NCBI GenBank assembly: GCA_000004695.1
Contig: CM000152.2
Location: 5,888,001-5,952,000, forward strand
Direction: 5' to 3'
From: Dictyostelium discoideum
Taxonomy: Eukaryota
Length of the DNA: 64,000 nt
Made by a program: the position numbers and the translations under genes
The notes under the pieces: generated by a model
Told to the model about the DNA's origin: nothing
What the model saw: only the letters and a program-made list of their open reading frames with translations
The model's database searches: none
Shown: positions 3,734 through 53,282 of the stretch, piece after piece
Position numbering within the stretch: the stretch's first letter is position 1
Layout: the number at the start of each line of letters is the position of its first letter

Positions 3734-5150
3734 TTTTTAAAAAATATATAAAAAAAAATAAAAAAAAAAAAAACTCAAAAAAAAAAAAAAATAAAAAAAA
3801 AAAAATTGATTACTTTTTTATTTTTTGTTAATCATTACATTAATCTTCTGTGTTAATTAAAATGACAAATTTTTCATAATCTCAATTTTAAAAAATTCTT
3901 AAAGTGGTTAAATATTCAATGGTAACAATTTTAATAACAAAAATTACCAAAATTAATAAATATTTATTTCAAATAATAAATTTAGATTTTTAAAAAATAA
4001 ACATTATTATAAAAAAAAAAAAAGTTTTTCCTGGTAAATTTGTAAAATAAAAATATTAAAAAAAACAGTTCATATGAAAAAAATATAACTAATGAAGTAA
4101 AAATAAAAAAATTTTTACATTACATAATTGTATAATGGCTAATTATTAAAATAAAAAAAGAAAAAAATCTCAATTTTAAAAAGAGTAGATTTATAAAGAA
4201 TAACTTTAATTGGTATTTTAACCTTTTTTAAAAAAAAAAATTGAAAAAAAAAAAAAAATCAAATCAAATCAAATCAACCTATTTAATTAACTTTAAAAAT
4301 TATAATGCACTAATCTCTAATATTGGAACTGTTCCAAGATTAAAATCTAATTCGAGATCATAAAATTCTTTTAAGGATCAAGGAATAAATTCTGTTTCGT
4401 GAAAATTCGGGAGGTGGCGCAGGTGAGAATTCTATTGGTATTGGTGCATTAGTTTAGTTAGTATAATAATGACTGTGGATGTAATTGGTAAAAAAAAAAA
4501 AAAAAAAAAAAAAATATATTTTAAAACTATTTTTTTTTTTTTTTTTTTGTATAAAAATGAATAAATCTTGATATTTAATATTTGTAAAAAAAAAAAAAAT
4601 AAAAAAAATATCTCAATCGTCCTAAAATTACAAAGAACCCTTTTTTTTTTTTTTTTTTTTTTTACTTAATTAATTATAATTTGTAAAATAAATAAATAAA
4701 TTTCAACTAATTATTAATTTACAAATTAACCAAAATCTAAATTAATGATATTAAAGATATTTTTTTTTTTTAAAAAAAAAAAAAAAGCTTCTATATTTCC
4801 TTTGTTATTAACAACAATTTATTTTTAAATTTTTATTTTTTTATTTTATTATTTATTTAATTTTCATTTTTTTATTTAATTTTTAATTTTTTATTTTTAA
4901 TTTTTTTCATTTGTGTGTGATTTACAAATTTGATTTATTGTCTTTGATTTTTAAGAAATTTTTAATTTTTTTATTTTTTAATTTAAAATTAAAAAATAAC
5001 CGACTTCATTGCAAACCAAAATCATACACCACTAACACTTAAGTATGCAATTATGTTTTTTTAAAAATAACCTCACTCAATTGTAATTGGTGGTGATGGA
5101 TAAAAAACAAAGAATCACCCTTGGGTATTTTTATTATATTTTTAAAAAAT

Positions 5151-5157
5151 CCCACAA
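5151..5157 (+). promoter_or_regulatory. Match to the dictyostelid upstream sequence element (DUSE, CCCAYAA) found upstream of ncRNA genes
   Basis: The exact heptamer cccacaa sits in an otherwise gene-free AT-rich intergenic region. In Dictyostelium this motif lies about 60 nt upstream of ncRNA transcription starts. Confidence 0.25.
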
Positions 5158-5214
5158 TGACTGAAAAAAAAAAAAAAAAAAATAAATTAAAAAAAAAAAA
5201 ATGAAAAAAAAAAA

Positions 5215-5346
5215 TAATCCATGAGATTTAAATCTCTTTTTATTTCAACCAAATTATTATCATTAATGGGTTAATAATAGAATCTCACACTCTCAAAATT
5301 CAACGAAACAATAATATGTGGTTATTTCTGCTTGTGATCACACCAA
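5215..5346 (+). ncRNA. Candidate small ncRNA downstream of the DUSE-like motif (type unassigned)
   Basis: Local hairpins are present (gagattt/aaatctc and gtgatcac), and the segment ends in a T6 run at about 5341-5346. I found no match to snRNA or box C/D consensus sequences. The support is position relative to the DUSE only. Confidence 0.15.
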
Positions 5347-5578
5347 CTACTCCCAAATTCTCAATTTTTTAATAAATTTAATTTTTTTTTTTTTTTTTAT
5401 TTATTTATTTATTTATTTTTTTATTTTTTTATTTTTTTTTCTTTCCTATAAATAAGAGGTTTTTTATTTTATTCTTCTTTCAAACCATTGTTCTTCAATA
5501 ATTAAAATAAAAAAAAAAAATTTTAAAACCATTGTAATTTAAAAAATAATAAAAAAATTTTAATAAAAAAAAAAAAAA

Positions 5579-5833
5579 ATGAATACCAACATAATTGAAG
5601 ATAGAACCAAAATGGAATTTTCTTATATTTGTAATAATAATAAAAGTCCTCTTGTCCTTTTTCCTGGTATTTTTTCAAGTTTTGGAATTAATGAGAATAA
5701 AGAATTTTATTATAATTATTTAGACTATAAATTAAATAATAATACAAAAAATGATAAAAATTATACACAAATTAATAAAATAAATAATAAAAATAAAAAT
5801 AAATTAAATATATTAAAAATTAATAATAATAAC

Positions 5834-5912
<79 letters not shown>

Positions 5913-6082
5913 TTATAATAAAAAATAAAAAAGAAATTTTAATAAATAATACAAATTTAGTTAATTTATGCAATAATTATTCAAATTGTTGTGATGAAAA
6001 TAAAAATATAAATAATATAAATAATGAACAAGTTTGCTTTTCAATTGATCAAGAAACTGATATTCAAATGATAATAGATTAA
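5579..6082 (+). CDS. Hypothetical Asn-rich protein (167-aa ORF)
   Basis: An ATG-initiated ORF with a complex N-terminal 60 aa followed by a long (AAT)n poly-Asn tract. I recognise no homologue. Confidence 0.35.
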
Positions 6083-6114
<32 letters not shown>

Positions 6115-6332
6115 CTATTTAAATAAAAATAAAAATAAAAAAATACCTTATTTATGGTATAAACCTTTGTACATTTTGTAAAATTAAAATTAAAATTAAT
6201 TTATTATTATTGCTATAATAAATAATTTTTTATTTTTTATTTATTTTTTTATTTGTTTATTTTTTTTAAATAAAAAAATTATTATTTTGTTGTATTTTAA
6301 AATCACTTATTATTATTGCTATAATGAGAATT

Positions 6333-6364
<32 letters not shown>

Positions 6365-6375
6365 TGGAAAACAGT

Positions 6376-8223
<1,848 letters not shown>

Positions 8224-8337
8224 ATTTTATTTTTATTATTAAATAATTTTTATTTCTTTTCTTTTTTTTTTTTTTTTCAATTGGATCTAATAATGCTATT
8301 TTTTTTTTTTTGAAAATCCAATCTTTGTTTTTTAATT

Positions 8338-10383: not shown

Positions 10384-10456
10384 TTTTTTTTTTTATTAAC
10401 ATCACTCAGTTTTCGATGACACCTTAGCAAAGTGTATTAACCATTTGTTTTTCGAT
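10384..10456 (+). repeat. Tandem partial copies of the tRNA-Ser 5' end plus its upstream flank (39-bp unit tttcgatgacaccttagcaaagtgtatta..), some abutting T-runs
   Basis: ttttcgatgac+T11, then ttttcgatgacaccttagcaaagtgtattaaccatttgtt, then the intact gene. Each unit contains the first 17 nt of the tRNA. Confidence 0.7.
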
Positions 10457-13784: not shown

Positions 13785-13940
13785 TGCTTTAAAATTTTCA
13801 TAAAAGACACCTTTGCAAAGTGTATCACCCAAAAATTTTTCAATGACACCTTAACAAAGTGTATCACACAAATAATTTGTGTGTACAACTTATTAAAGTA
13901 TATTTCGATTACACCTTTACAAACTGTAATACCCAAAAAA
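13785..13940 (+). repeat. Degenerate cluster of tRNA-Ser 5'-end-like fragments (gacaccttWRcaaagtgtatcac..), with no intact tRNA
   Basis: Three divergent copies of the 39-bp tRNA-5'/flank unit lie immediately next to the 3' terminal module of the minus-strand TRE at 13941+. Confidence 0.6.
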
Positions 13941-14060
13941 TTTTCTGCGACAACATTTTTTTTGAATAGAATAACGCAATTTTTAGTTACTTCTTCTTGA
14001 GATATGACTCATTTTATTAATTTTATTATTAGATATTACAGGTGCCTTTTAAGGTTGTAT

Positions 14061-14102
<42 letters not shown>

Positions 14103-14862
14103 TTGGGGGGTGTAGAGTGTGTTTAGTGACGTAATATATTTGTTGAGGGTTGATGGTAGTGCTACTGTGTGTAGTGGTGAGTTCCAGTGTTTGCTAAATC
14201 TTTCGAGTTGTAGGGAGATGATGTTTTTAAATTATTTTATTTGTTCTTTGTTGGTTGCTTTTTTTTCTTGTCTGATTAGTTTCTATATGTTGTTTTTTGT
14301 TCTTTCCCAGGCTGCTGTTTGAGTTTTCTTTAGTTGTTTTCTTAAGTTTTTGAGTGTTGTGGATTTTCTTGTTTCTTCTTCTCCAGATGTTTTCGCAAAT
14401 AATGGCTATGGCGTTGGCTGTTAATGGAATGTCTAGTCTGTTGAAGATTTCTATTCCCCAATTGATTCTGGATCCTCCAGATTTTTCTTGAATGTAGTTG
14501 ATGCACTCTTGAGTTTCTTTAATGTGTGATTTGCATTTGAAGAAGATGTGTTCTGAGGTTTCCTGTTCGTTACACCAGATGCAAGGGGCGTTGTGGATCT
14601 TTGGAAGAGCTTTAAGAGCTAATCTCCAGAGGAGGTCTCTTCCTTTCAAGTTGACTATTTTCCTGATTTCTAGAAAAGGGAGAGTTGTTTTTTTAATTTC
14701 TTTCATGATTTGGGTCTGACCCGGAGTTGGGTTGAAAGAATCGTAATTTGGATATTGGTTTTCATGAGATCATTGTATATTGTTTTGAGGTTGGGGAGAA
14801 CTTCGTAATGGGGTTTGAACCATGATTCTGCGAGAACATAGGGAAGTGTATAACCTCAATAT
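13941..14862 (-). mobile_element. 5'-truncated TRE5-like non-LTR retrotransposon (ORF2 C-terminal Cys/His domain, 3' module with internal A-run)
   Basis: The ORF 14227..14706 (KGRDLLWRLALKALPKIHNAPCIWCNEQETSEHIFFKCKSH...) is paralogous to the copies at 17421..18809 and 49429... Poly(T) on the + strand at 14061-14098 is poly(A) on the element strand. The terminal module gaatagaataacgcaatttttagttacttcttcttgagata recurs at 16460-16510. Confidence 0.7.
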
Positions 14863-14870
14863 TTTTCCAT

Positions 14871-14951
14871 GACACCTTAGCAAAGTGGTTAATGCGGCGC
14901 CCTGCTAAGGCGTTCTCTTCGGAGGCGCAGGTTCGAACCCTGCAGGTGTCG
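14871..14951 (+). tRNA. tRNA-Ser (anticodon GCU), copy B
   Basis: Identical over its 81 nt to copy A. Confidence 0.9.
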
Positions 14952-14982
14952 AAATTTTTTATTCAATCAAACCTGAATAACA

Positions 14983-15030
14983 GGTTCGATTCATTCATAG
15001 GTAAAAAAAAAAAAAAGGTTCGATTCATTC
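14983..15030 (+). repeat. 14-bp direct duplication of the exB box (ggttcgattcattc) flanking an oligo(A)14: footprint of a TPRT event truncated to its tail
   Basis: Reads caGGTTCGATTCATTCatag-gtA14-GGTTCGATTCATTCtag, starting 32 bp after tRNA-Ser B. Confidence 0.55.
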
Positions 15031-15127
15031 TAGTATTAAAAATAATTAATAAACTCTTAACCAAATCTATTATTAATAGTTTTTAATAATAAAACGAAAA
15101 AAAAAAAAATTATATCTTTTATATAAA

Positions 15128-15179
<52 letters not shown>

Positions 15180-16068
15180 AATTAAAATATATAAGTTAAA
15201 TTAATATATGATTGTGGTGTTGAAATGAGACATTTAATGTAAAACAACACTTTTATTTAATTTATCTCCCACACCACACATTATTAATAATTTTTTTTTT
15301 TTTTTTTTTGTCAAACACAAAACGCATTAAAAACTATAATAATATTTTAATTTTATTTTAATAATAATTTAATTATATTTTCCCATTTGTTTTTGTATTT
15401 GATAGACAAAAACTTAATAGTAAAATTTTTCCTATGGGTTTTTGATAAGAAATATAATTTTTCATTTCATTTTTAAATCTTAAAATATAAAATATCTTAT
15501 CTAGTAGAAAAGATTAAAAATTAAAATACTAAAAAATAATAATAGTAAAAATAATAGTTATAATAGTACTCTATTATCTTCAACAAATAAAGATAATGAA
15601 GTTTGTACAACTACCAATTCAATAACAACTTTAGATGATAAAGCTTTTTATTTTAATAATTGCAATAGAAAGGCTGAAATATGTGTATTATTAAAACATC
15701 AATAACCACAGATGGTATATTAAATATTAGAGGAGAAGTTTTATTACCAAAATTTAAAAAAAAAAAATAAAAATAAAAAAAAAAAAGAAAAAAGAAATAG
15801 AAAAACAAAAATTTATAAATTAAAATTATTACTTCCGTAATATTTATTTCATTTTTTTTATTTATTTATTTAATAATTTTTTTTTTTTTTTTTTATTTTA
15901 TTTTATTTAATTTTTTTTTTTCGATTTGAGTAGGATTTATAAATAATTTGAATGTTGATGGATGATTTGTGGGGAGATAATAGTATAGAAAAAACAATCA
16001 AATATTTTTATTAGATTTATCTAATAGTTTCCAATTTAGAAATTTGTAATTGTTCTTGGATTCAACTC

Positions 16069-16128
<60 letters not shown>

Positions 16129-16321
16129 AAATTTGTTTTTTTGAATTATTATTTTTTTTTAAATTCCTAAAATTGAGACTCTCCAGTTACTCACCTCGAT
16201 CCAAATATGAACACTTTTGTTGTTTGTTTAAAACAAAACACACTTAAAAAAAAAAAAAAAAAAAAGGAAAAACAAAAAAAAAAAAAAAAAAAATAATTTT
16301 TAAAACAATTAGAAACCAAAT

Positions 16322-16444
16322 TAAACAACGACACCTTAGCAAAGTGTATTACCAATTGGTATTCAATGACACCTTAACAAAGTGTATCACCCATTTGGTT
16401 TTGGATGACACCTTAGCAAAGTGTATTACCCATTTGGTTTTCGA
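16322..16444 (+). repeat. Tandem array of about 3.5 copies of the 39-bp tRNA-Ser-5'/flank unit, with no intact tRNA
   Basis: Copies read gacaccttagcaaagtgtattaccaattggtattcaat, gacaccttaacaaagtgtatcacccatttggttttggat, and gacaccttagcaaagtgtattacccatttggttttcgat. The array ends gacac+T9 at the 3' end of the next element. Confidence 0.7.
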
Positions 16445-16550
16445 TGACACTTTTTTTTTGATTGGAATAACGCAATTTTTAGTTGCTTCTTCTTGAGATA
16501 GATCTCATTTTATTTTTAGATAGGTTTCAGGTGCCTTTGAAGGTGGTAGA

Positions 16551-16593
<43 letters not shown>

Positions 16594-17345
16594 TTAAATT
16601 TAAATTTTGTGTTGAGGGATGTGATGTATTTGTTGAGGTTGGATGGAAGTGTTATGTGTATTGGAGAGTTCCATTGTTTACTGAATTTTTGGAGATGTTT
16701 GGAGATGATGGATTTGAATTTCTTGATCTGTTCTTCGCTTTGTGCTTTTCTTTCTTGTCTGGTTAATTTGTAAATTGTGTTTTTGGTTCTTTCCCAGCTG
16801 CTGTTAGTGTTTTTTTAGTTCGTGGATTAATAACTCCTTCTTTAAATTTTTGAGAGTGATTCCTTCATAAACTTTTTTGTTTTTTCTTTTCCAAATGTTT
16901 TCGCATATTATTGCTATGGCATTGGCAGTTAGTGTAATATCGAGTTTGTTGAACACTTCTAATCCCAGAAGTGATTTTGGAGCTTCCACTTTTATCTTGG
17001 ATGTGATCTATACCATCTTGAGAGTTGCTGAGGTGTGATTTGCATTTGAAGAATATGTGTTCAGAGGTTTCAGGCTCGAGGCACCATACTTTGAAAAGTT
17101 ACCTCCCCAGATTCGATGATAGTATAGTAATCCCTCATTGCGGAGTTTTTAGTTGCGATACTTATTGGTCCGGTTATACATTGTTTTTTTTTTAATTGAG
17201 TTTTATCCACAATTTCGCTTATTTTTTGTAGGCATTTGTGTTGCTTAATATTTGTGGTGTTGTTTGTGATTTTCATTTTATTTTCTTTCTATTTTTTTTA
17301 TTTTTCTTTAAAAAGTTAAAAATCTGGAAATTTTCTGATTAACTT
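16445..17345 (-). mobile_element. Internally deleted TRE5-like element: 5' leader and ORF1 start (MKITNNTTNIKQHKCLQ) fused to the ORF2 C-terminal domain and 3' module
   Basis: The 5' end cttgggaacccaagttaatcagaaaatttccag matches the element 5' end at 50031. The ORF1 start at 17276 matches 50105. The distal ORF (16804..16989, LTANAIAIICENIW) matches ORF2 of copy B. The internal A-run is 16556-16588 and the terminal oligo(A) is 16445-16453. Confidence 0.65.
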
Positions 17346-17353
17346 GGGTTCCC

Positions 17354-17424
<71 letters not shown>

Positions 17425-18885
17425 TTATAGAAAGTACTGAGTGAATTATTGTATTTTTTGAGATGTTTCGGAAGTTCTATTGCGTGAAGAGGTGAGTTCC
17501 ATTGTCTGCTAAATTGTAATAGCTTTAGCGAGATTAGTGAGTCTAATTTATTTTGTTCTTCTGGCCGTTGCTTTGATTTGATTCTTAATGTTTTGTTTAT
17601 AACCGCTTGTGTCCTGTCCCATGCAGCTCTTTGTGTTTTAATCAGTTCACGTATGACTTGTTGTCTGTGAATTATTATTTCTTTTTCATCGTGAATGAGT
17701 TTATTTCTTTTGTGCCAGATTCTTTCGAATATAATAGCTATTAAATTGGCTACTAGTGCGATTTGTAGATGGTTTAAAATCTTCACATTCCAGGTGTGAG
17801 TGGTGTGTCCACACTTAGTTAGGGTGTAGTTGAATATTTCTTGTGTGTTTTTGATGTGGGCTTTGCAGTTGAAGAATATATGTTCTGAAGTCTCATCTTC
17901 CCCACACTGTTGGCATGGCATGTTGTATATTTTTGGTAATGCTTTCAGTGTGTATCTCCATAATAGATCTCTACCTTTCATGTTTATTATTTTTTTGATT
18001 TCTTTAAATGGAAGGTGTTTGCTATTAATTTTGGTCATTATTTCTTTTTGGCCAGGAGTTGGTATGAATTTGTTGTGTTCTGGAGATTGAGTTGTCATCA
18101 TATCCTCGTATATTTTTTTTAATTTTGGGAGGTGTTCGTAGTGTGTTTGTTTATTTTGTGGAGTTTTTAATTGGGTCCATGCTTGCTTGCATTGCCAGTG
18201 TAGTTGTAGTTGTAGTTGATTTTGTTTTGTTGTTGTTTTGTTGTTGTTGTTGTTTCTGAGTTCCTCTTCCCACAGTTTTATATATGAACTAGGAGTGTTA
18301 CTTACTCTTTGGTGGAGGTATCTTTCGAATAACCATGCTTTCTGTGCTAGTTCTCTTGTCTTCAGGTTCCATAAGTTTAGGCCACCATTGATATAGTTGT
18401 TTTGTCTTCTTTGTAGTGAAAGAGAGTTTTTAGATTTTGTGTTGAAAACGAATTTTACGATGTTATTTTCAATACTATTGTGTTGTGATGTGGTGTTGAT
18501 GTAAGTGTGGAACGTTAACTGAGATAGTGCATATGTTTTTGCCATTATGAGTCTGCCCATATAGGTTGATGAAGTTGAGTTCCATGTTACTAGTTTAGCT
18601 CTGATGTTGTCTGAGATTGTATTGATTTTGGATTTGATACCCTTATTGTTGAAGTCAAATCCGAGGTACCGTTCGTTTGATTTTATGACGGTGTATAGCG
18701 TTCTGGTGTTCCATTTGAAAGTGATACACGAGCATTTGGTTTGGTTTATTTTTGCGCTGGTTGCTTGGCAAAACTTCTTGATCCATTCATTCATGAGGAA
18801 ATGGTCCATAAAGTTGTATGCTATTGTTGCTGTGTCATCGGCGAACTGTAATATGTCATCGATGACAGCTTAAAAAAGTGTATTA
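17346..18885 (-). mobile_element. 5'-truncated TRE5-like element: reverse transcriptase from just before the FADD motif through the ORF2 C-terminus to poly(A)
   Basis: The reading frame begins AVIDDILQFADDTATIA (RT motif C). It continues into ORF 17421..18809 (ERYLGFDF...KGRDLLWRYTLKALPKIYNMPCQQCGEDETSEH). Poly(T) on the + strand at 17355-17423 is a 69-nt poly(A) tail. The proximal end lies about 20 bp upstream of tRNA-Ser C. Confidence 0.8.
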
Positions 18886-18902
18886 TTCATTTGGTTTCCG
18901 AT

Positions 18903-18983
18903 GACACCTTAGCAAAGTGGTTAATGCGGCGCCCTGCTAAGGCGTTCTCTTCGGAGGCGCAGGTTCGAACCCTGCAGGTGTCG
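18903..18983 (+). tRNA. tRNA-Ser (anticodon GCU), copy C
   Basis: Identical to copies A and B. A degenerate fragment of the 39-bp unit precedes it. An exB-like tgttcgattct follows at about 19013. The 3' flank is similar to that of copy A. Confidence 0.9.
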
Positions 18984-42269: not shown

Positions 42270-44022
42270 TTATATTTTATATAATAATAAACCCATTACC
42301 TGTACACTATAAACTTTTAAATTTTTAATATCATTAAAATTTGTTGATTCTTGTTGATTATCATTATTTATGAAATTAAAATAAATTAATTCTTCATTTT
42401 CACCACCTGCTAATAATCTACAACCTTGAAGAGTTTCATCATAGTATGAAATTCTTTTAATATATGGGTAATCTTTATCAAGTTCAAATGTATGAATTGT
42501 AAGATTTGAATTTGAATTATCAAAGTTTACTAATAAATTACCATTAATAGTATGATCACCATTACCATTAAAAGTTTCATTATAAATTAAAAATTCATTT
42601 CCATGGAAATCTTTATAAAAACCTGCTAAAAATGAATTTGGGATAATTGGAATTTCTTGTTTAATAAGATAATTTTCAATTTGTTGAATTTTAGATGCTT
42701 CTTCATTTAATAGGATTTCATATATTGGTACTAAAATATCAATTGTTGAATTAATATAAATATCTGGTGAATTAATATCTGATAATGATGAAAAGAAGAA
42801 TCCTAATTTTAATGGTCTAACAAATGCCATATTTGAGTGGTATCCTGTTAAATCACCATTCTTTGCTGATATCCAAATTGAATTACTTGTATCATATGTA
42901 TGTAAAAAAGGTATACCATAAACACTAAATCCGTCTCTTAAAAGGTTCATTGGTGAAAATAATTCATTTAATGTTGTTTCTTCTAAATAAAATGATGATT
43001 CACTCTGTTGCTGATTTTCATCACTTAATAAGAAGATCATAAATTTAGCCATATCATTAGCAGTTGAAAAAATGCCACCACCTGGTGAATTCCAACCAGC
43101 TGGTGAAATTGGAGCAATTGAAAAACTACCATTACTCTTTTTATATAATCCAATTGCCATATTATCTTTAACTTTTTCATCATAATTAAATGTAGTATTA
43201 TCCATTCCTAATGATTTAAAAATATTATTTGTAACCCAGTATTCATATGCTTGTTGTTCTTTCATTGTTTTTTTCATTTTTAATGATTCACCTAAAACTC
43301 TACCAAGTAATGAAAATCCTAAATTTGAATAATGTGATAAAATATTTGGTTGTTTTGAAATTAAAAATTGTTTTGATAATTTTGAAAGTATGACTTTATC
43401 ATTACATTTATTTGTTCCATAATCAATTCTATCACATGGAGTCTCTCTTGCCAAACCACTTTGATGAGATGCCAATTGTCTAAATGTAATTTTTTCATTT
43501 CTTTTATCTTTATAAATTGAATTAATTTTAAATTGTGGGAAATAATCACGAATATCATCATCCAATGAATTTATAATACCTTGATCTCTTAATTTAAACA
43601 TCATTAATGATGTAAAAGTTTTTGTAATACTTGCAATTCTAATACTTTTGAAATATAAAAAAAAATAATAAAAAAAAATTATTATTAAAAATATAAAAAT
43701 AAAAAACAATTTTTTAATATCATAAAATTATTTCATACTTATTATTAAGAGTTAAATTTAAAGAATTTTCATCTAATGGATTTATTTTTCCATATGCTTT
43801 AGAGAAAATTATTTCATCCTTGTATACGATAGTGGCAATAAATGATGAAATATTATCTGATTTCATTTTTGTTTGAATTAAATTATCAATTTCATTATAT
43901 GCTTTTAATAATAAAGGATGATTTTGATCAATTTTTATTGGTTTTGGATATGTTGGACATGTTTTAAATAAATTTAAAAATGTAAATATTAAAATTATTA
44001 TATATTTATAATTTGTATTCAT
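42270..44022 (-). CDS. Beta-lactamase-family serine hydrolase (LACTB/esterase-like), secreted, 2 exons: 44022..43726 and about 43645..42270
   Basis: The SxxK active-site motif is ASITKTF. Exon 1 encodes a signal peptide and the start of the domain ([16 protein letters not shown]). The donor is GTATGA after ..LNLTLNNK. Paralogous to the next gene. Confidence 0.75.
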
Positions 44023-44393
44023 TTTTTAATTTTTTTTCTTTTTATTAAATTTTTTTTATTATTTAATTTTTTTTTTTTTTTCTTTCTTTTTTTTTTTAAA
44101 AATAAAATAAAAAAATTTTTTAATAATTAAATTAATTTAATAATTCCATGAAAGTTGAGGGGTGATCAATATTTACACACACACACCCACTTGGTAAACA
44201 GTTACTTTTTTTTTGTGTGGGTTTTAGTGGTAAAGTGTAAAATCTCATTTTTATCTTTTGGTGATGTTTTATAAATAAATTAAAAAATAAAAATAAACAC
44301 CCCAAAAGTGAACAGAAAAAAAAAAAAGAAAAAAAATAAAATTAAAATTTATTTTTATTATATTTCTATTATTAGAATAAAAACTATTTAAAA

Positions 44394-44797
44394 CTATTTA
44401 AATAATAAAGAACCCATAATTTGAACACTATAAACAAATAAATTATTTATATCAATATTTTGATTATTATTATTATTATTAAAATCAATAATTGTACCAT
44501 TAATATCTTTAAAAGTGAAATAAATTAATTCATCATTACTTCCACTAGCTATTGTTCTACAAGTTGGTATTGATTCATTATAGAATGAAATTCTTTTAAT
44601 ATATGGATATTCATTATCAAGTTCGAATTTATTTAAAACTAAACTTGCACCATTATAACTTACTAATAATCTATTTAAATAATCACCATATGTTGTTTGA
44701 TTTAAAATTAAAAATTTATTACCATAATCATTTGTATAAATTCCAATTAAAAGTGAATGAGGGATTTTTGAAATAAAAATAGATTCCATAGTATTAT

Positions 44798-44844
<47 letters not shown>

Positions 44845-46183
44845 GAATTTGAACTTGTTGTTGTTGAATTAATTACTGAATCTATTGCTGCTTGTTCTAA
44901 TAATTTTTTATAAACTGGTATTAAAATATCAATTGCAGCATTTGTATAAACATCGCTACTACTAACACTTGTTAATGATGAAAAAAATAAACCTAATTTG
45001 TATGGTTTTACAAATGCAATATTTGATACATATCCTTGTAAGTCTCCATTTTTTGATAAAATCCAAAGAGAATTATTGGTACTATACGAATGTAAAAATG
45101 GCATACCATAGGAAGCAGACCCATCGTTTAACAAATTACTTGGTGAAAATAATTCATTTAATGTTGATTCTTTTAAATAGGATGGTGATCTTATATCTAG
45201 TGAATTATTATTCATACCTAATAAATGTATCAATAGTTTACCCATATCTCTTGCAGTTGAAAAAACACCACCACCAGGTGAATTCCAACCTGATTTTGTC
45301 ATTGATGGTATTGAATATTTACCATTATTATTTACTAATCCTGGTGCAGTATTATTAATAATATCTTCATAATTGAATGTTGTATTATTCATTCCCAATG
45401 GTTTAAATATATTATTTGTAACCCAATATTCATATGGCTCTTGTTCTTTCATTCTTTTCATTCTTAATGATTCACCTAAAGTTCTACCAAGTAAAGAATA
45501 TCCTAAATTTGAATAATGTGATAAAGTAGTTGGTTTTGAAATTAAAAATTGTTTTGATAATTTTGCTAAAATAATTTTCTCTGTACAATTACTTGTTCCA
45601 AATTCATTTCTATGACATGGTGTCTCTCTTGATAAACCACTTTGATGTGATGCCAATTGTCTAAATGTTATAAACTTTTCTTCTTTTTTTTTAAAAATTG
45701 ATTTAATCTTAAATTTTGGGAAATAATCACGAATATCATCATCTAATGAATTAATTATACCTTGGTCTCTTAATTTAAACATCATTAATGATGTAAATAC
45801 TTTTGTAACACTTGAAATTCTAAAACTAAATAATAATTATTTTAAATTAAAAAAACATATAAAAGATTTTTTTAAAATAACTTTTTAATTTCTTTAAATA
45901 CATACTTATGATCAAGAGTTAAATTTGGTGAGTTAATATCTAAATAGTTCAATTTACCATATGCTTTTGAAAAAACAACTTTGTCCATGTAAACAATAGT
46001 TGCAACAAATGATTTAACACCATCAGCTTTCATTTTACTTTGGATTAATAAATCAATATCATTATAAGCTTTTAATAATAATGGGTCATTTTGATCAATT
46101 TTAATTGGTAAAGGATAAGTTGGACATGAATATAATAAATTAGCAAATGTAAATAACAAAAATAAATATAAATAATATTTCAT
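44394..46183 (-). CDS. Beta-lactamase-family serine hydrolase, tandem paralogue, 2 exons: 46183..about 45890 and about 45800..44394
   Basis: Exon 1 ([52 protein letters not shown]) is about 60% identical to exon 1 of the previous gene. Exon 2 is collinear with it ([33 protein letters not shown]). It carries a poly-Thr insert encoded by (ACA)n. Confidence 0.7.
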
Positions 46184-46888
46184 TTTTTTTTTTTTTTTTT
46201 TGATAATAATATAATAATTATTTTATTTTTCATTTAAATAGTTAATTTTTTTTTTTTTTTTTATTAAATTGAATTGATTATAATAAATTCGAAATCCTGA
46301 TTAAAAAATTTGTTCGAATTCATCTTAGATAGTTGTAAATTTGTAGGTATTAAATGAGAAATCTATCTGATCTTATTCTAAACTAAAATTTTATTAGAAA
46401 TCCATCATTTTTATTGTTTTAATTTTGTTGAAAAAAAAAAAAAAAGTGTTTTGGGCAATTGAATATTATTGGTCAAAACAAAACAAATCTAAATGTTTTC
46501 AGTTGGACTCTTAGTGGGACGAATAAAAAAAAAAATTAAAAAATCTATTTTTGTCATTTTTTTTAAAATTTGAAAAAAAAAATTTTTCATTTTTTAATGT
46601 TGAAAAGTAAATTCTAGAACACCCAAAAATACACGATAATATAAAATGTAAAAAAATGGATGAGATCATATAAAAAAAAAAAAAACAGAATAATCTAATT
46701 CATATTTTTTAAAAATTTATTTATTTTTCATTTTTTGTAATTGTTATTATTACTTAAAAAAAAAAAAAAAAAAAAAAAAAAAGTAGTTGTAACTATTTAA
46801 TTAAATCTTTTTTTTTTTTTTTTCTTTTTTTATTTTCTTTTTAAAAAAAATAATAAATAAATAAAAAAACTATAAATTAATTTATTAT

Positions 46889-49247: not shown

Positions 49248-49329
49248 TGTAAGCTAAGGGATTCGAACCCTTGTATCAATGATATTGCAGCCTTAATGCA
49301 ACCCCTTAGACCAGCTCGGGCAAGCTTAC
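49248..49329 (-). tRNA. tRNA-Leu (anticodon AAG)
   Basis: Acceptor stem GTAAGCT/AGCTTAC. 3-bp D stem (CCC/GGG). Anticodon stem TTGCA/TGCAA with loop TTAAGGC. Long variable arm. T-arm AAGGG-TTCGAAT-CCCTT. Length 82 nt. Confidence 0.85.
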
Positions 49330-49384
49330 TTTTTTTGAAATTTTATTAATAATATCCTGTTAAATATAGGTTTTTTTATAATCA

Positions 49385-50030
49385 ATAGCAAACACCTTCC
49401 ATTTAAAGAAATTAAAAAAATAATATACATGAAAGGTAGAGACCTATTATGGAGATACACACTTAAAGCACTACCAAAAATATACAACATGCCATGCCAA
49501 CAGTGTCGGGAAGATGAGACTTCAGAACATATATTCTTCGACATCAAAAACACACAAGAAATCTTCAACTACACCTTAACCAAGTGTGGACACCACTCAC
49601 ACCTGGAATGTTAAGATTTTAAACCATCTACAAATTGCACTAATAGCCAATTTAATAGCTATTATATTCGAAAAAATTTGACACAAAAGAAACAAACTCA
49701 TCCACGATGAAATAGAAATAATAATTCATAGACAACAAGTCATACGTGAACTATTTAAAACACAAAGAGCTGCATGGGACAGAACACAAGCGGCTATAAA
49801 CAAAACATTAAAAATCAAATCAAAGCAACGGCAAGAAGAACAAAATAAATTAGACTCATTAATCTCGCTAAAGCTATTACAATTTAGCAGACAATGGAAC
49901 TCACCTCTTCACGCAATAGCACTTTCCAAACATCTCAAAAAATACAATAATTCACTCAGTACTCTCTATAAATAAAAAAAAATAAAAAAATAAAAAAAAA
50001 ATAAAAAAAAAAAAAAAAAAAAAAACCTGG
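49385..50030 (+). mobile_element. 5'-truncated TRE5-like element (ORF2 C-terminus and poly(A)). Its proximal end is about 55 bp upstream of, and divergent from, tRNA-Leu
   Basis: MKGRDLLWRYTLKALPKIYNMPCQQCREDETSEHIFF.., then ..NSLSTLYK, then an A-rich tail at 49976-50030. About 90% identical to copy 17421..18809 at the protein level. Its position matches the known TRE5 preference for about 48 bp upstream of tRNA genes. Confidence 0.8.
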
Positions 50031-50342
50031 AACCCAAGTTAATCAGAAAATTTCCAGATTTTTAACTTTTTAAAGTAAAATAAAAAAAATAGAAAGAAAA
50101 AAAGATGAAAATTACAAACAACACCACAAATATAAAGCAACACAAATGCCTACAAGAAATAAGTGAAATTGTGGATAAAACTCAACCAAAAAAAAACCAA
50201 TTCAAATACGTCATAAACATCAATCATGAAGCTGATGATAAAATAAAAAAAGATTTAGAAAAAAATTTGGACAAAAAAGATGTTTTAATCAAAAGTAATA
50301 ATCCAATTCAAAATTCGAAACAAAAAAAAAAAAAAAAAAAAA
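50031..50342 (+). mobile_element. Tandemly inserted TRE5-like 5' fragment: element 5' end cctggaacccaagttaatcag.., start of ORF1 (MKITNNTTNIKQHKCLQEISEIVDKTQ..) and oligo(A)
   Basis: It begins directly at the end of the preceding element's poly(A). Its 5' leader and ORF1 start are the same as in the 16445..17345 copy. A22 at 50320-50342. Confidence 0.6.
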
Positions 50343-50424
50343 AGTAAACTAACCCCTCTTTTAGAGACCCTGTAAAAAAAAAAAAAAAAAAAAACTAAAA
50401 ATAAAATGAGATCTAGCATCTCAA

Positions 50425-50612
50425 GGAGAAGCAACTTTTTTTTTTTTTTACCTAAAAGCGGTGTATTGTTATATTTTATTACATTTTTAAATTTTTAGAT
50501 TTTAAATTTTTAAATTTTTATATTAAGGAGAAGCAACTATTTTTTTTTTTTTACCTAAAAGCGGTGTAGGAGAAGCAACTTTTTTTTTTTTTTACCTGTG
50601 ATCAGACCTTCA
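50425..50612 (+). repeat. Composite block (ggagaagcaact-T13-acctaaaagcggtgtattgttatattttattacatttttaaatttttagattttaaatttttaaatttttatatt .. T14-acctgtgatcagaccttca) repeated at 52246..52432
   Basis: Two copies in the same orientation, about 187 bp each at roughly 90% identity, flank the TRE3-like element 50704..52236. Within each block, the short modules ggagaagcaact and oligo(T)-acctaaaagcggtgta recur. Confidence 0.75.
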
Positions 50613-50692
50613 AGGAATGTCCTTGTGTCTTTTCGGCGGTGTTTGTTAAACGATTTTATTTTTATTATTCAATTGTATTAAATTTTTTAAAC

Positions 50693-50703
<11 letters not shown>

Positions 50704-50740
<37 letters not shown>

Positions 50741-52236
50741 ACTACTTAAATTTGAAGAGGGTTCGGAAATGCTGGGGTTTGCCAGGCTTTGTTGAATTTG
50801 TATTTGTGAAGATCTTGATTGGTGTTTTTTAGTATTGCTTCGTCGTGTTTGATTTTCTTTAGTGTGATGAATTTTTCAGTTTCGATGAGATTTAGTAATT
50901 CTGTTTCTATGACCTTTTGCTCGAATTTTGGCTCTGGTTTGCTTTCATCAGTGTTGAACAATTTGTGACAGATTATCTTCCATAATTGGTGTGCTATTAT
51001 TCCTATGAGATTGGGGAAGATTCTCTCAGTTCTGTTGTATTTTGATATGTCTAAGGTATCCATTGACCATCTGTGGATTTTGATGAATGATAATTTGTTA
51101 ACTGTTGATATGATGGTTTTTTCAATATCTAGGATATCTTGGCATAGAGTGAAGAGGTGAGAATAAGGGTCTCTGAATAGGTGGCCACAGATCTTGCATC
51201 TGGTGTCTCTTTCGTGGTTGATACCTGGAAGTGATCTTGAGAAGAATCTGAAGAGGGTGTTTCTACCTTTTTGGTGAGAAATGCTGTTGATGTTTATGAA
51301 TACTTTGGGTATTGCTGTGTTGTATCTCACCGCCCATAACTTCTGCCATTCTGTTCTTCTTGGTGTTGGGTGTCTGTCTTTGATCATGAGTTCGTAAATT
51401 TCTTTCAGTTTTAGTGGTTCATCATTGTCGTTTCTTATACAGTCTGGAAGTTCATTTATCTTTGGATGATTTTGGTAAAATTTGACTCTGAATACACCCC
51501 AGTGTCTGCACATATCGTTGAGGGTTGAAGTGTGGGCTTTTTTCTACTTAATTGCTCCATGTACCATTCTTGTAAAGTATTGTTGTTGTTGTTGTAGTTG
51601 TTATGGAGTAGCCTGTTCATGTACCAGATTTTGAATGCTATATGTCTTAGTTCTATATCCCATAATTTTATGCCTCCTTCTTTCCAATCTGCATATGCTC
51701 TGTCTATTTTCATCATAGTTTTGTATTTTCTCTCTTCTGTATATGTATTCTTAACTGAGGAGAATAAGAACCATCTGGTCATGTTATTTATTTCCTCAAT
51801 TTGTTCTTCATTTAGATTATCCATGTATTGATGGTATGTTAATTTGGATAGAACGTATGTTTTGAGAATTGTCATCTTTGCCTTCATCGTTATTGCTTGT
51901 GATTTCCATTTTATTAGATTGTTTTTCATTTCTTGGATTAAAGTGTTGTATTTTGAATTTAAACCTGTTTTGGTGAAATTGAGGCCAAGATATCTTTCTG
52001 GGACTGTACTCTCTTGGAATGGTAGATCGTGTGGTTTATCTCCTATTGCCATCATTACTGTTTTCTCTTTGTTTAACGATGATGATGTTGCTGAGCAGTA
52101 CTTTTGGATTTTAGTATTAATTTTCATTAGTTCTTCTGTGGAGTTTGTAAAGGTTGCTATGTCGTCAGCAAATGCAGTGAGTTTTAATGATTTGGAATTT
52201 GGTAGAGTGAAGCCTTTGATTGTATTATCATTGTAG
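50704..52236 (-). mobile_element. 5'-truncated TRE3-like non-LTR retrotransposon (RT C-terminal half from the FADD motif, Cys/His-rich ORF2 end, 42-nt poly(A)), 75-270 bp downstream of tRNA-Val
   Basis: The frame begins ..LKLTAFADDIATFTNS (RT motif C), then MKINTKIQ...ERYLGLNF... (ORF 51456..52127). The second ORF 50746..51513 ends with RCKICGHLFRDPYSHLFTLCQ. Poly(T) on the + strand is at 50704-50745. This lineage differs from the TRE5-like copies and matches the downstream-of-tRNA preference of TRE3. Confidence 0.75.
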
Positions 52237-52245
52237 GAGAAGCAA

Positions 52246-52432
52246 CTAATAATTGCGTTATCTTTTTTTTTTTTTTACCTAAAAGCGGTATATTGTTATA
52301 TTTTATTACATTTTTAAATTTTTAGATTTTTAAATTTTTAAATTTTTATATTGTTATATGTTGATATTTTTGGTTATATTATTATAATTGCGTTATCCAA
52401 TTTTTTTTTTTTTACCTGTGATCAGACCTTCA
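52246..52432 (+). repeat. Second copy of the composite block (see 50425..50612)
   Basis: It abuts the truncated 5' end of the TRE3-like element and lies about 74 bp 3' of tRNA-Val. Confidence 0.75.
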
Positions 52433-52505
52433 TGCGTTATCCAATTCAAAAAAAAAAAAAAATATAGGTTTTTTAAATGTAAATTTAAATGAAAAATATT
52501 AGTTT

Positions 52506-52579
52506 GTATTCAGAGCGGGAATCGAACCCACGACCTAATCCGTGTTAAGGATTCGTGATAACCGACTACACCATCCGAA
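52506..52579 (-). tRNA. tRNA-Val (anticodon AAC)
   Basis: It is collinear with eukaryotic tRNA-Val(AAC): GTTCGGA-TGG-TGTAGTCGGTTATCACG-AATCCTTAACACGGATT-AGGTC-GTGGGTTCGATTCCCGC-TCTGAAT-A. The acceptor stem has two G.U pairs. Confidence 0.8.
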
Positions 52580-53282
52580 CTAATCGATATTTTTGAAAAA
52601 ATTTAGCTTGTACCGGTTTTTTAAAAACAAGGTTTAATAATCAAAGATCAAATAATAAACGAACTTAAAAAGAAGCAGCATGGGACAAAGCAAAATCTAA
52701 CATCAACAAACTAATTAGACAACGAACCAACATTCAATTCCGTCAACACACTTTTTAGATAAAAAAAAATAAAAAAATAAAAAAAAAAAAAATAATAATA
52801 AAATTTTAATAAAATTATCAAATGTACTTGTCCAATTCAAAAAAGCTAGATAAATCATTGGAGGAGATTTGTTTTGTGAAAAATGTAAATTGTGGGGTGA
52901 AGACTTATTAATAAAAAACATTTTCTTATAATCTTAAAGCAATTCAAAGATCTTCTCCAGCATTTTATTCTACTATATAATACTAACTGTGACCCTTGGT
53001 CAGAATTACTATAAATAAATGATAAAATTAAAAGTAAAACTAATAGGAACCATAATGGACTTAATATGGTATATATTAATACAAAACTTTTTAAAAACAA
53101 AGTAACAATAAAAATTATTTTTTTATTTTTTTTTTTTTTGTTTTTTTTTAATATTTTTTTTATTTATTTAATATCTAGTGATGGAAAAAAAAAAGACCTT
53201 TTTCATATAAAATATTTATATAATATTATAATTTTTTTTAATTTTTTTTTTTTTTTTTTATAAAAAGTCGAGTAGTAAATGT

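Follow-up and report, generated by a model that had tools for sequence, protein, structure and literature searches.

We analysed a 64,000-nucleotide stretch of chromosome 3 of Dictyostelium discoideum AX4 (GenBank assembly GCA_000004695.1, contig CM000152.2, positions 5,888,001 to 5,952,000; hereafter the window, with a G+C content of ~22% and open reading frames (ORFs) identical to AX4 proteins). Upstream of one of its serine transfer RNA (tRNA) genes it contains a TRE5 retrotransposon copy, termed D, which is real but is a chimera. D combines the A- and B-modules of TRE5-A, a 91-nt orphan segment (termed U) and the C-terminus of a TRE5-C-like ORF2 with its C-module. We read D as chimeric because its 5' part is 99% but its 3' part only ~75% identical to TRE5-A, because the 3' part is frameshifted and because U is an orphan. 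For the most part, what is found at this locus is ordinary Dictyostelium retrotransposon debris beside tRNA genes and is explained by published knowledge.

Composition of element D

TRE5-A.1, also known as DRE, is the autonomous non-long-terminal-repeat retrotransposon of D. discoideum that targets tRNA genes. It has the structure AB-ORF1/ORF2-BC, in which a 290-bp B-module holding the ORF1 start is duplicated into the 3' untranslated region (UTR) (PMC3159450). TRE5-B and TRE5-C are without this 3' B-module. The C-module, which ends both TRE5-A and TRE5-C, is ~78% identical between TRE5-C and TRE5-A.1 over its last 87 nt, and the terminal folds measure 51 nt in TRE5-C versus 54 nt in TRE5-A (PMC3159450). 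Reference copies were taken from a recent D. discoideum assembly via proteins sharing the ORF1 N-terminus; in the following, L numbers denote comparison loci and P numbers protein records, of which P0003, P0004 and P0018 come from D. discoideum or its strain AX4. The modular structure of TRE5-A is directly visible in L001, L002, L004 and L007. Its 5' end in L001 consists of tandem 199-bp A-modules, a 67-bp partial A-module, an A-run and the B-module, and the 3' end of the full-length TRE5-A.1 copy in L002 runs from the ORF2 stop through ~35 A, a B-module with the ORF1 ATG, an A-run and the C-module to an oligo(A). The modular 3' UTR, with a C-module of ~135 bp, is complete at window positions 49976-50434 plus 52433-52461 and at L004 6593-7092. 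Over L002 1-8357 as a whole the order is ORF2, A-run, B, ORF1, ORF2, A-run, B, C. Here two TRE5-A units have one B-module in common and neither an A- nor a C-module between them, an arrangement that points to recombination of a 5' with a 3' B-module or else to an artefact of assembly.

The B part of D is 98.9-99.4% identical to TRE5-A (97.8% to L002 7876-8097), and its ORF1 N-terminus matches P0001-P0003. The last TRE5-A nucleotide lies at 17180, the first position of codon 33 and four bases past an A10 run, and the break thus falls after ORF1 codon 32 (...KKKQ, window 17180/17179): the canonical ORF1 starts MKITNNTTNIKQHKCLQKISEIVDKTQLKKKQFKYVININ..., and the window reads ...KKKQ followed by CITGPISIATKN.... 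D keeps 32 of the 444 ORF1 codons, with no TRE5-A sequence beyond them. A previous sequence-only reading of this DNA had placed the breakpoint at about codon 68; codons 33-68 of the 68-amino acid (aa) ORF concerned (17276..17070) are in fact U followed by out-of-frame ORF2 sequence. The same reading had described D as a mini-element in which the two parts are joined directly. A TRE5 5' part, a Cys/His C-terminus and a 3' module are indeed present together upstream of the tRNA-Ser gene at 18903, but 91 nt separate them.

The 3' part of D is ~71-75% identical to TRE5-A, 76.5% to a copy upstream of another tRNA-Ser gene in the window (termed A'; window 13903-14562 versus 16400-17071 in the self-comparison, 76.5%) and 79.6% to L003 6188-6831, a copy in another strain. 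None of A', D, L003 and L007 has a 3' B-module: downstream of their ORF2 stop comes an A-run, which the C-module directly adjoins. Over the last 87 nt of the C-module the identity to TRE5-A is 75.0% for D, 77.5% for A' and 72.6% for L003, that is, in the range of 73-78%, and these copies are 87-89% identical among themselves. The predicted three-stem terminal fold is kept in the C-module of D, with a first hairpin that is 3 nt shorter and one compensatory pair, and the terminal hairpin region of A', L003 and L007 is likewise 3 nt shorter than that of TRE5-A. We call A' and the 3' part of D TRE5-C-like because of the missing 3' B-module, the identity over the last 87 nt and the fold shortened by 3 nt. 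Proteins that match the TRE5-C-like copies are named only 'hypothetical protein'. D's version differs from the other copies in being frameshifted and 76-80% identical to them. The internal deletion of a single element that had been proposed for D does not account for two halves of this kind, one TRE5-A (99%) and the other TRE5-C-like (~75%), with 91 nt between them.

U has no match in the window or in L001-L007 except at the orthologous site (blastn with word size 7, tblastx), and ~150 kb of other Dictyostelium DNA contained no copy of it. A degenerate continuation of ORF2 was rejected as its source by Smith-Waterman comparison with the upstream ORF2 of A', L003 and TRE5-A (p = 0.15-0.87, 300 shuffles), a small RNA, tRNA or ribosomal RNA fragment by Rfam (E <= 10) and ARAGORN, neither of which gave a hit, and a part of TRE5-A (A-module, ORF1 or ORF2) by the absence of blastn and tblastx matches. 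The exception in the Smith-Waterman comparison is one 18-mer (16/18) in TRE5-A ORF2, which lacks collinearity and does not reach significance when the element as a whole is used. Folding z-scores of +0.9 and +0.7 give no signal. For the open frame of U, word-indexed and exhaustive HMMER protein searches recover only P0018, the gene call of this locus.

Further copies of the junction were searched for at the protein level, and for U in the ~150 kb of DNA mentioned above. P0018 is the sole junction-spanning protein in 1.84 billion cluster representatives, and its cluster in a 5.8-billion-protein set (90% identity) has one member from one contig. D's 68-aa ORF has no record elsewhere in the searched protein collections; the other matches to it cover residues 1-33 only, and P0020 is a low-identity repetitive match. 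The idea that the same breakpoint recurs at other loci thus finds no support. P0022, in which an ORF1 N-terminus is fused to a TRE ORF2 C-terminus, was considered as a further chimera and rejected as a spliced gene prediction over two elements, because at the L007 locus ~400 bp of other DNA lie between the normal 3' end of a TRE5-A and a separate TRE5-C-like copy. P0027 is another predicted fusion of an ORF1 N-terminus with a TRE ORF2 C-terminus. The two L007 copies (TRE5-A at 4478-5357, TRE5-C-like at 5770-6437) have clean duplications, CAATTCCTATGAAAT and CTTCTATGAAAT, and occupy corresponding sites of a repeated sequence; neither a tRNA gene nor an Rfam RNA polymerase III gene lies within 2.5 kb.

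The locus in a second assembly

L004 is the same locus in a chromosome-scale contig of the newer assembly GCA_054883475.1, from the same strain lineage, and was reached via P0004. When the neighbouring genes (hexosaminidase, Ras-like) were used to look for the locus in other strains, this was the one indexed assembly with identical products. Over 20 kb it differs from the window by 6 substitutions, 18 homopolymer-length indels and one 754-bp block that the window is missing. In element sense, L004 reads: tRNA-Ser, 33 nt of flank, GCTGTCATCGATGAC, a 5'-truncated TRE5-A (A-run, B, A-run, C, oligo(A)), GCTGTCATCGATGAC again, GA, a full and a 67-bp partial A-module, an A-run, B nt 1-177, U, the TRE5-C-like tail, the C-module, A9, GTGTCATCGA and then the upstream array. 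The 754-bp block supplies the 3' B-module, C-module and oligo(A) of the TRE5-A, the second copy of its 15-bp target-site duplication (TSD), GCTGTCATCGATGAC, and D's 1.3 A-modules. The latter are 99.6% identical to canonical TRE5-A. Thus D has a genuine complete TRE5-A 5' end in L004 and no A-module in the window, and the earlier claim that it retains both termini holds for L004 but not for the window. The six nucleotides TGACGA that precede the A-module in L004 form, together with the target, a perfect 12-nt palindrome, GTCATCGATGAC.

Given L004, there is nothing unusual about the TRE5-A at 17421-18854 as an insertion: it has a 15-bp duplication, and its 5' end lies 48 nt upstream of the tRNA-Ser gene. 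Window 17382-18854 is 98.4% identical to ORF2 of the full-length TRE5-A.1 copy (L002 6454-7920), and from 18854 to 17180 the window runs collinear with L002 6454 to 8097 at 98%. The second copy of the 15-bp duplication is found at L004 7093 and is absent from the window. There, only an A-run and 177 nt of B-module (17180-17426) follow the TRE5-A ORF2, and this B-module is D's: it is 100% identical to D's B-module in L004 and 99.4% (one base differs) to the 3' B-module of the neighbouring TRE5-A. The A-run at 17358-17426 had been taken for another copy's poly(A), but TRE5-A normally has an A-run between the ORF2 stop and the 3' B-module. Since both duplication copies and the canonical ends are present in L004, we regard its arrangement as the biologically coherent, ancestral one.

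That the 754 bp are absent from the window is more likely due to assembly collapse across an A-run and B-module repeat in the AX4 reference. Here the window joins the internal A-run of the TRE5-A to the A-run before D's B-module, and the block is bounded by A-runs and then by 177-nt B repeats that differ at one position (window 17358-17426 versus L004 6593-7412). A long homopolymer followed by a 177-bp repeat is a classic collapse site in Sanger-era shotgun assembly, which counts against a real loss of DNA, as does the near-identity of the two assemblies elsewhere in the 20 kb. The other explanation, to which we give not far short of an even chance, is that the window is correct for AX4: the 754 bp would have been lost by recombination or slippage between the A-runs or the A-run plus B repeats, leaving a 3'-truncated TRE5-A truly fused to D's B-module. 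The same direct repeats would serve such a deletion, and the B-module in the window starts with CTTGGG, which is D's variant, and the junction therefore lies within the A-runs. The A-run in the window, 69 nt, comes near to the combined length of the two L004 runs (34 + 42), and this length tells against a confident choice of collapse, as either process would fit it. In both cases the TRE5-A ORF2 in the window seems to run into D's B-module and so mimics a normal TRE5-A 3' UTR.

Origin of D

On both sides of D, which lies 48-50 bp upstream of the tRNA gene, stands a 9-bp direct repeat, TGTCATCGA, and D's 5' end is 48-50 nt from tRNA-Ser no. 3. In the window the proximal copy, TCGATGACA, is found at 18859-18867, inside the proximal 15-bp duplication of the TRE5-A. 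When D and one copy of the repeat are removed, an unbroken 39-bp periodic array is restored. The flanks, the restored array and the position fit an integration of D as one unit.

We consider it rather probable that the locus records two successive TRE5 integrations at tRNA-Ser no. 3, the chimeric D first and the TRE5-A second, in addition to A' at tRNA-Ser no. 2. In this account, D would have been 1.2 kb long at entry, consisting of TRE5-A A-modules, B nt 1-177 with ORF1 codons 1-32, the 91 nt and 640 nt of a degenerate TRE5-C-like 3' end, and would have arrived by target-primed integration at the usual position of about -48. A 5'-truncated TRE5-A.1 would later have landed between D and the tRNA gene, with a 15-bp duplication that overlaps D's 5' junction. 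D is placed first because the TRE5-A lies between D and the tRNA gene and because the TGAC that comes after D's left repeat copy is part of the TRE5-A TSD. We infer, on evidence that is not decisive, that D most likely entered as one chimeric complementary DNA (cDNA) formed by template switching. Reverse transcription would have started at the C-module of a defective TRE5-C-like transcript, the template would have been switched through the 91-nt U onto a TRE5-A RNA just 3' of the A10 run of its B-module, and extension of the cDNA would then have reached that RNA's 5' end. D probably arose as a one-off and does not represent a propagating family.

Template switching by reverse transcriptases of long interspersed nuclear elements (LINEs) makes chimeric retrocopies, for example the mammalian U6/L1 and other small nuclear RNA (snRNA)/L1 chimeras. 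These resemble D in being one target-primed insertion of different RNAs joined head to tail, with a single oligo(A) and a single pair of target duplications. D differs in that its 5' partner is the RNA of another retrotransposon, joined internally, in that a third, 91-nt piece is present, and in that we infer the mechanism.

Several points weigh against a single template-switched D. Switching to an internal acceptor position is less typical than jumping from end to end, and no donor for the 91-nt piece or for the TRE5-C-like part was found in the window or in L001-L007. The label TRE5-C-like itself follows published descriptions and not a TRE5-C reference sequence. Moreover, TGACGA (L004 7093-7110) amounts to six extra nucleotides between D's left repeat copy and nt 1 of the A-module, which exceeds the usual one or few. 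Finally, the 9-bp repeat is no proof of entry as one unit, because successive TRE5 insertions strike nearly the same nucleotide. The sequence-only reading had asked for flanking duplications of D's own; a 9-bp repeat does flank D, and it is also expected if the two parts arrived separately.

Such a separate arrival has a chance that we put clearly below even and still take seriously. An old 5'-truncated TRE5-C-like element at -48 would have been joined by a full-length TRE5-A (or TRE5-A.2), after which a deletion that began at B-module nt 178 and ended shortly before the Cys/His motif of the old element, with the 91 nt captured as filler at the repair junction, would have fused the two; the 5'-truncated TRE5-A would be the third arrival. 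Stacking of TRE5 elements at one tRNA gene is demonstrated by this last element, whose TSD overlaps D's flank, and the 5' part of D looks young (99-99.6%), whereas its 3' part is frameshifted and 76-80% identical to the nearest available relatives. With two overlapping targets the outer 9-bp repeat would arise here as well, the old element's 5' end might account for the extra TGACGA, and the failure of the protein searches to find a second copy of the junction agrees with this course of events. It requires, however, two integrations, a deletion and the capture of a 91-nt filler, compared with one event with template switches. Furthermore, no remnant that it might have left (a TRE5-A 3' end, an inner TSD or further TRE5-C-like sequence) is present between the parts, and U matches neither partner.

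The sequence-only reading had instead treated D as an internally deleted single TRE5 element, belonging to a non-autonomous family mobilised in trans, with 50031-50342 as a second trace, which we hold to be highly improbable. A precedent exists in TRE5-A.2 (AB-ORF1-BC), a non-autonomous, ORF2-less derivative that is mobilised in trans by the TRE5-A.1 ORF2 protein (PMC3159450). Like TRE5-A.2, D is short, has no functional ORF2, starts with an A-module promoter, ends in a C-module and occupies the same type of integration site; in L004, with its complete 5' end, C-module fold, oligo(A) and 9-bp repeat, it sits in the canonical position and orientation. TRE5-A.2, in contrast, keeps the whole ORF1 and the 3' B-module, is made of TRE5-A sequence throughout, is multicopy and is experimentally mobile, whereas D has 32 ORF1 codons, no 3' B-module, 640 nt at its 3' end that appear to stem from another family, with a C-module of the TRE5-C type, and a single copy found. 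Removal of ORF1 from a tagged TRE5-A lowered retrotransposition by 99.5%, and a heterologous TRE5-B ORF1 was inactive (PMC3159450); by these data, little activity would be predicted for D. The different identities of the two halves to TRE5-A, the orphan 91 nt between them and the single junction-spanning protein, which comes from this very locus, also speak against a deleted family, and the stretch 50026-50321 belongs to a normal TRE5-A as its canonical 3' B-module. Scarcely more probable, in our view, is a hybrid non-autonomous element not described before, with a TRE5-A promoter, 32 codons and a TRE5-C-type C-module, that is mobilised in trans and to which D belongs as a member or as the founder. 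We keep to the single chimeric D, followed by the TRE5-A, as the favoured account.

Neighbouring elements and meaning

ARAGORN calls six tRNA genes in the window, three of which are tRNA-Ser(GCT) genes on the plus strand. All three are preceded, in phase, by 1-4 units of 39 bp, each made up of the first ~20 nt of tRNA-Ser(GCT), including the A-box-like TTAGCAAAGTG, and a 19-nt spacer; the pattern GACACCTTAGCAAAGTG of these units has 11 matches versus 0.03 expected. The TRE5 insertions at these genes are positioned inside the unit closest to the tRNA-Ser gene, and element 5' ends face the tRNA genes at distances of 44-50 nt. For tagged TRE5-A, integration takes place 46-49 bp upstream of tRNA genes (PMC3159450). 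Just 3' of the tRNA-Ser gene at 14871-14951, GGTTCGATTCATTC, a B-box-like motif outside the gene, occurs twice at ~14983-15030.

Three TRE5 pieces had been reported as a nested array at 13941-18885. They are present, on the minus strand, but at two different tRNA-Ser(GCT) targets, and no nesting exists, as ~1.4 kb of non-element DNA and a tRNA gene separate A' from D and the TRE5-A. A' is a separate 5'-truncated TRE5-C-like integration without a 3' B-module; between its 5' end and tRNA-Ser no. 2 downstream lie 44 nt, and the copies of its 12-bp duplication, TTCTGCGA(C/G)AAC, agree at 11 of 12 positions. Its ORF is intact, being 100% identical to P0004 and 98% to P0005 (a copy on another chromosome), and gives the sole match in a Pfam scan of the ORFs, a weak zf-RVT.

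The repeat of the leader and ORF1 start at 50031..50342, previously taken for a tandem fragment, is real. It is the ordinary 3' B-module of an ordinary 5'-truncated TRE5-A, as seen in L002, L004 and L007 for TRE5-A.1, since window 49380-50434 is collinear with L002 7272-8324 (92.8%) and the C-module follows at 50344. The ORF at 50105-50347 is DDB_G0282561. In the self-comparison, 17180-18030 aligns with 50201-49380 at 91% in a single alignment straight through the 'poly(A)', which argues against two independent elements abutting by chance. The element has a 12-bp TSD, TATAGGTTTTTT, at ~49365-49376 and 52462-52473. The TRE5-A copies at 17421-18854 and 49380 are thus ordinary 5'-truncated copies, 98% and 92% identical to the full-length copy, and share an internal A-run, a 3' B-module, a C-module, an oligo(A), TSDs of 12-15 bp and a distance of 48-50 nt from the tRNA gene; the former is without its 3' B/C end in the window and has it in L004. 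D's A-modules and B nt 1-177 match TRE5-A.1 at 99%.

Several nested minus-strand insertions (50435-52432) split the C-module of the 49380 copy, the only truly nested arrangement that we saw. Their 3' ends are T-runs followed by ACCTAAAAGCGGTGTA or ACCTGTGATCAGACCTTCA, and duplicated C-module target borders each of them (AGGAGAAGCAAC four times, TGCGTTATCCAATT twice). In one of them there is a 1.5-kb ORF2 tail of a non-long-terminal-repeat (non-LTR) element (50746-52236), and the insertions lie 50-300 bp downstream of the tRNA-Val gene, the position expected for TRE3-type elements. A tandem duplicate at 42373-44071 and 44512-46230 (77-78% identity, minus-strand ORFs of 479 and 463 aa) is unrelated to the TRE5 elements.

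Table 1. Positions of the TRE5 elements, their parts and their targets in the window and, where stated, in L004.
Feature	Position	Strand	Remarks
39-bp unit stretches	10418-10456, 13791-13954, 16330-16450, 18864-18902		
tRNA-Ser(GCT) no. 1	starts 10457	+	
39-bp array	13791..13954	+	native upstream region entered by A'; TRF period 39
A' distal TSD	13943..13954		TTCTGCGACAAC
A', 5'-truncated TRE5-C-like element	13955..14826	-	ORF2 C-terminus, A-run, C-module, oligo(A)
A' oligo(A)	13956-13963	-	
A' C-module	13964-14062	-	
A' A-run	14063-14098	-	
A' ORF with Cys/His motif	14227-14706	-	ORF2 C-terminus; DDB_G0282541
A' proximal TSD	14827..14838		TTCTGCGAGAAC
tRNA-Ser(GCT) no. 2	14871..14951	+	target of A'
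39-bp array, 3.1 copies	16330..16450	+	native upstream of tRNA-Ser no. 3; last unit cut by D insertion
Distal copy of D's 9-bp flanking repeat	16441..16449		TCGATGACA; in the window flanks the composite of D and TRE5-A
D in the window	16451-17356	-	
D 3' part, TRE5-C-like	16451..17088	-	oligo(A)9 16451-16459, C-module 16460-16553, A-run 16554-16588
D degenerate ORF2 C-terminus (Cys/His part)	16589-17088	-	over three reading frames; tblastn matches in three frames
U/ORF2 junction of D			GGAGGTAACTTTTCAAAGTATGGTGCCTCGAGCCTGAAACC
U, orphan junction segment	17089..17179	-	frame in phase with ORF1 ATG open
B/U junction of D			CTCAATTAAAAAAAAAACAATGTATAACCGGACC; CTCAATTAAAAAAAAAACAATGTATAACCGGACCAATAAG
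TRE5-A B-module nt 1-177, D's 5' end	17180..17356	-	ORF1 ATG at 17276, codons 1-32
A-run, 69 nt	17358..17426	-	fusion point in the window
5'-truncated TRE5-A.1	17421..18854	-	last 1.43 kb of ORF2; 462-aa ORF 17421-18809
TRE5-A 15-bp TSD, proximal copy	18855..18869		GTCATCGATGACAGC (= GCTGTCATCGATGAC in element sense)
tRNA-Ser(GCT) no. 3	18903..18983	+	target of D and of the neighbouring TRE5-A
tRNA-Leu	49248-49329	-	
Second 5'-truncated TRE5-A	49380..50434	+	50 nt upstream of tRNA-Leu
Parts of the second TRE5-A	49380-50434	+	ORF2 end 49380-49975; internal A-run; canonical 3' B-module 50026-50321; A-run; C-module first part 50344-50434
Second TRE5-A, terminal C-module piece and oligo(A)	52433..52461	+	100% to L002 8333-8358
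tRNA-Val	52507-52580	-	
L004: 15-bp TSD copies	5146 and 7093		
L004: TRE5-A 3' modules	6593-7092		A-run, B, C, oligo(A)
L004: D A-modules	7110-7378		
L004: D C-module and A9	8200-8311		

Both the second B-module with an ORF1 start in the 3' UTR of TRE5-A and the pile-up of TRE5 elements ~48 bp upstream of tRNA genes were known already. What is left over as an oddity is the apparent TRE5-A/TRE5-C chimera with its 91-nt insert, and as a single copy without ORF1, D is a curiosity rather than a new class. The 754-bp gap in the AX4 reference falls exactly where the border between two elements is disguised, which calls for caution in repeat annotation. Dictyostelium TREs are not known to be mobilised across families when ORF1 is absent in cis; if a hybrid element mobile in trans did exist, the reverse transcriptase of one TRE5 family would accept the C-module fold of another. 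If D entered as one cDNA, it would illustrate how template switching can occur in nature between two families of TREs, and it would also offer a natural test of whether the integration machinery needs the fold of the C-module and not its sequence.

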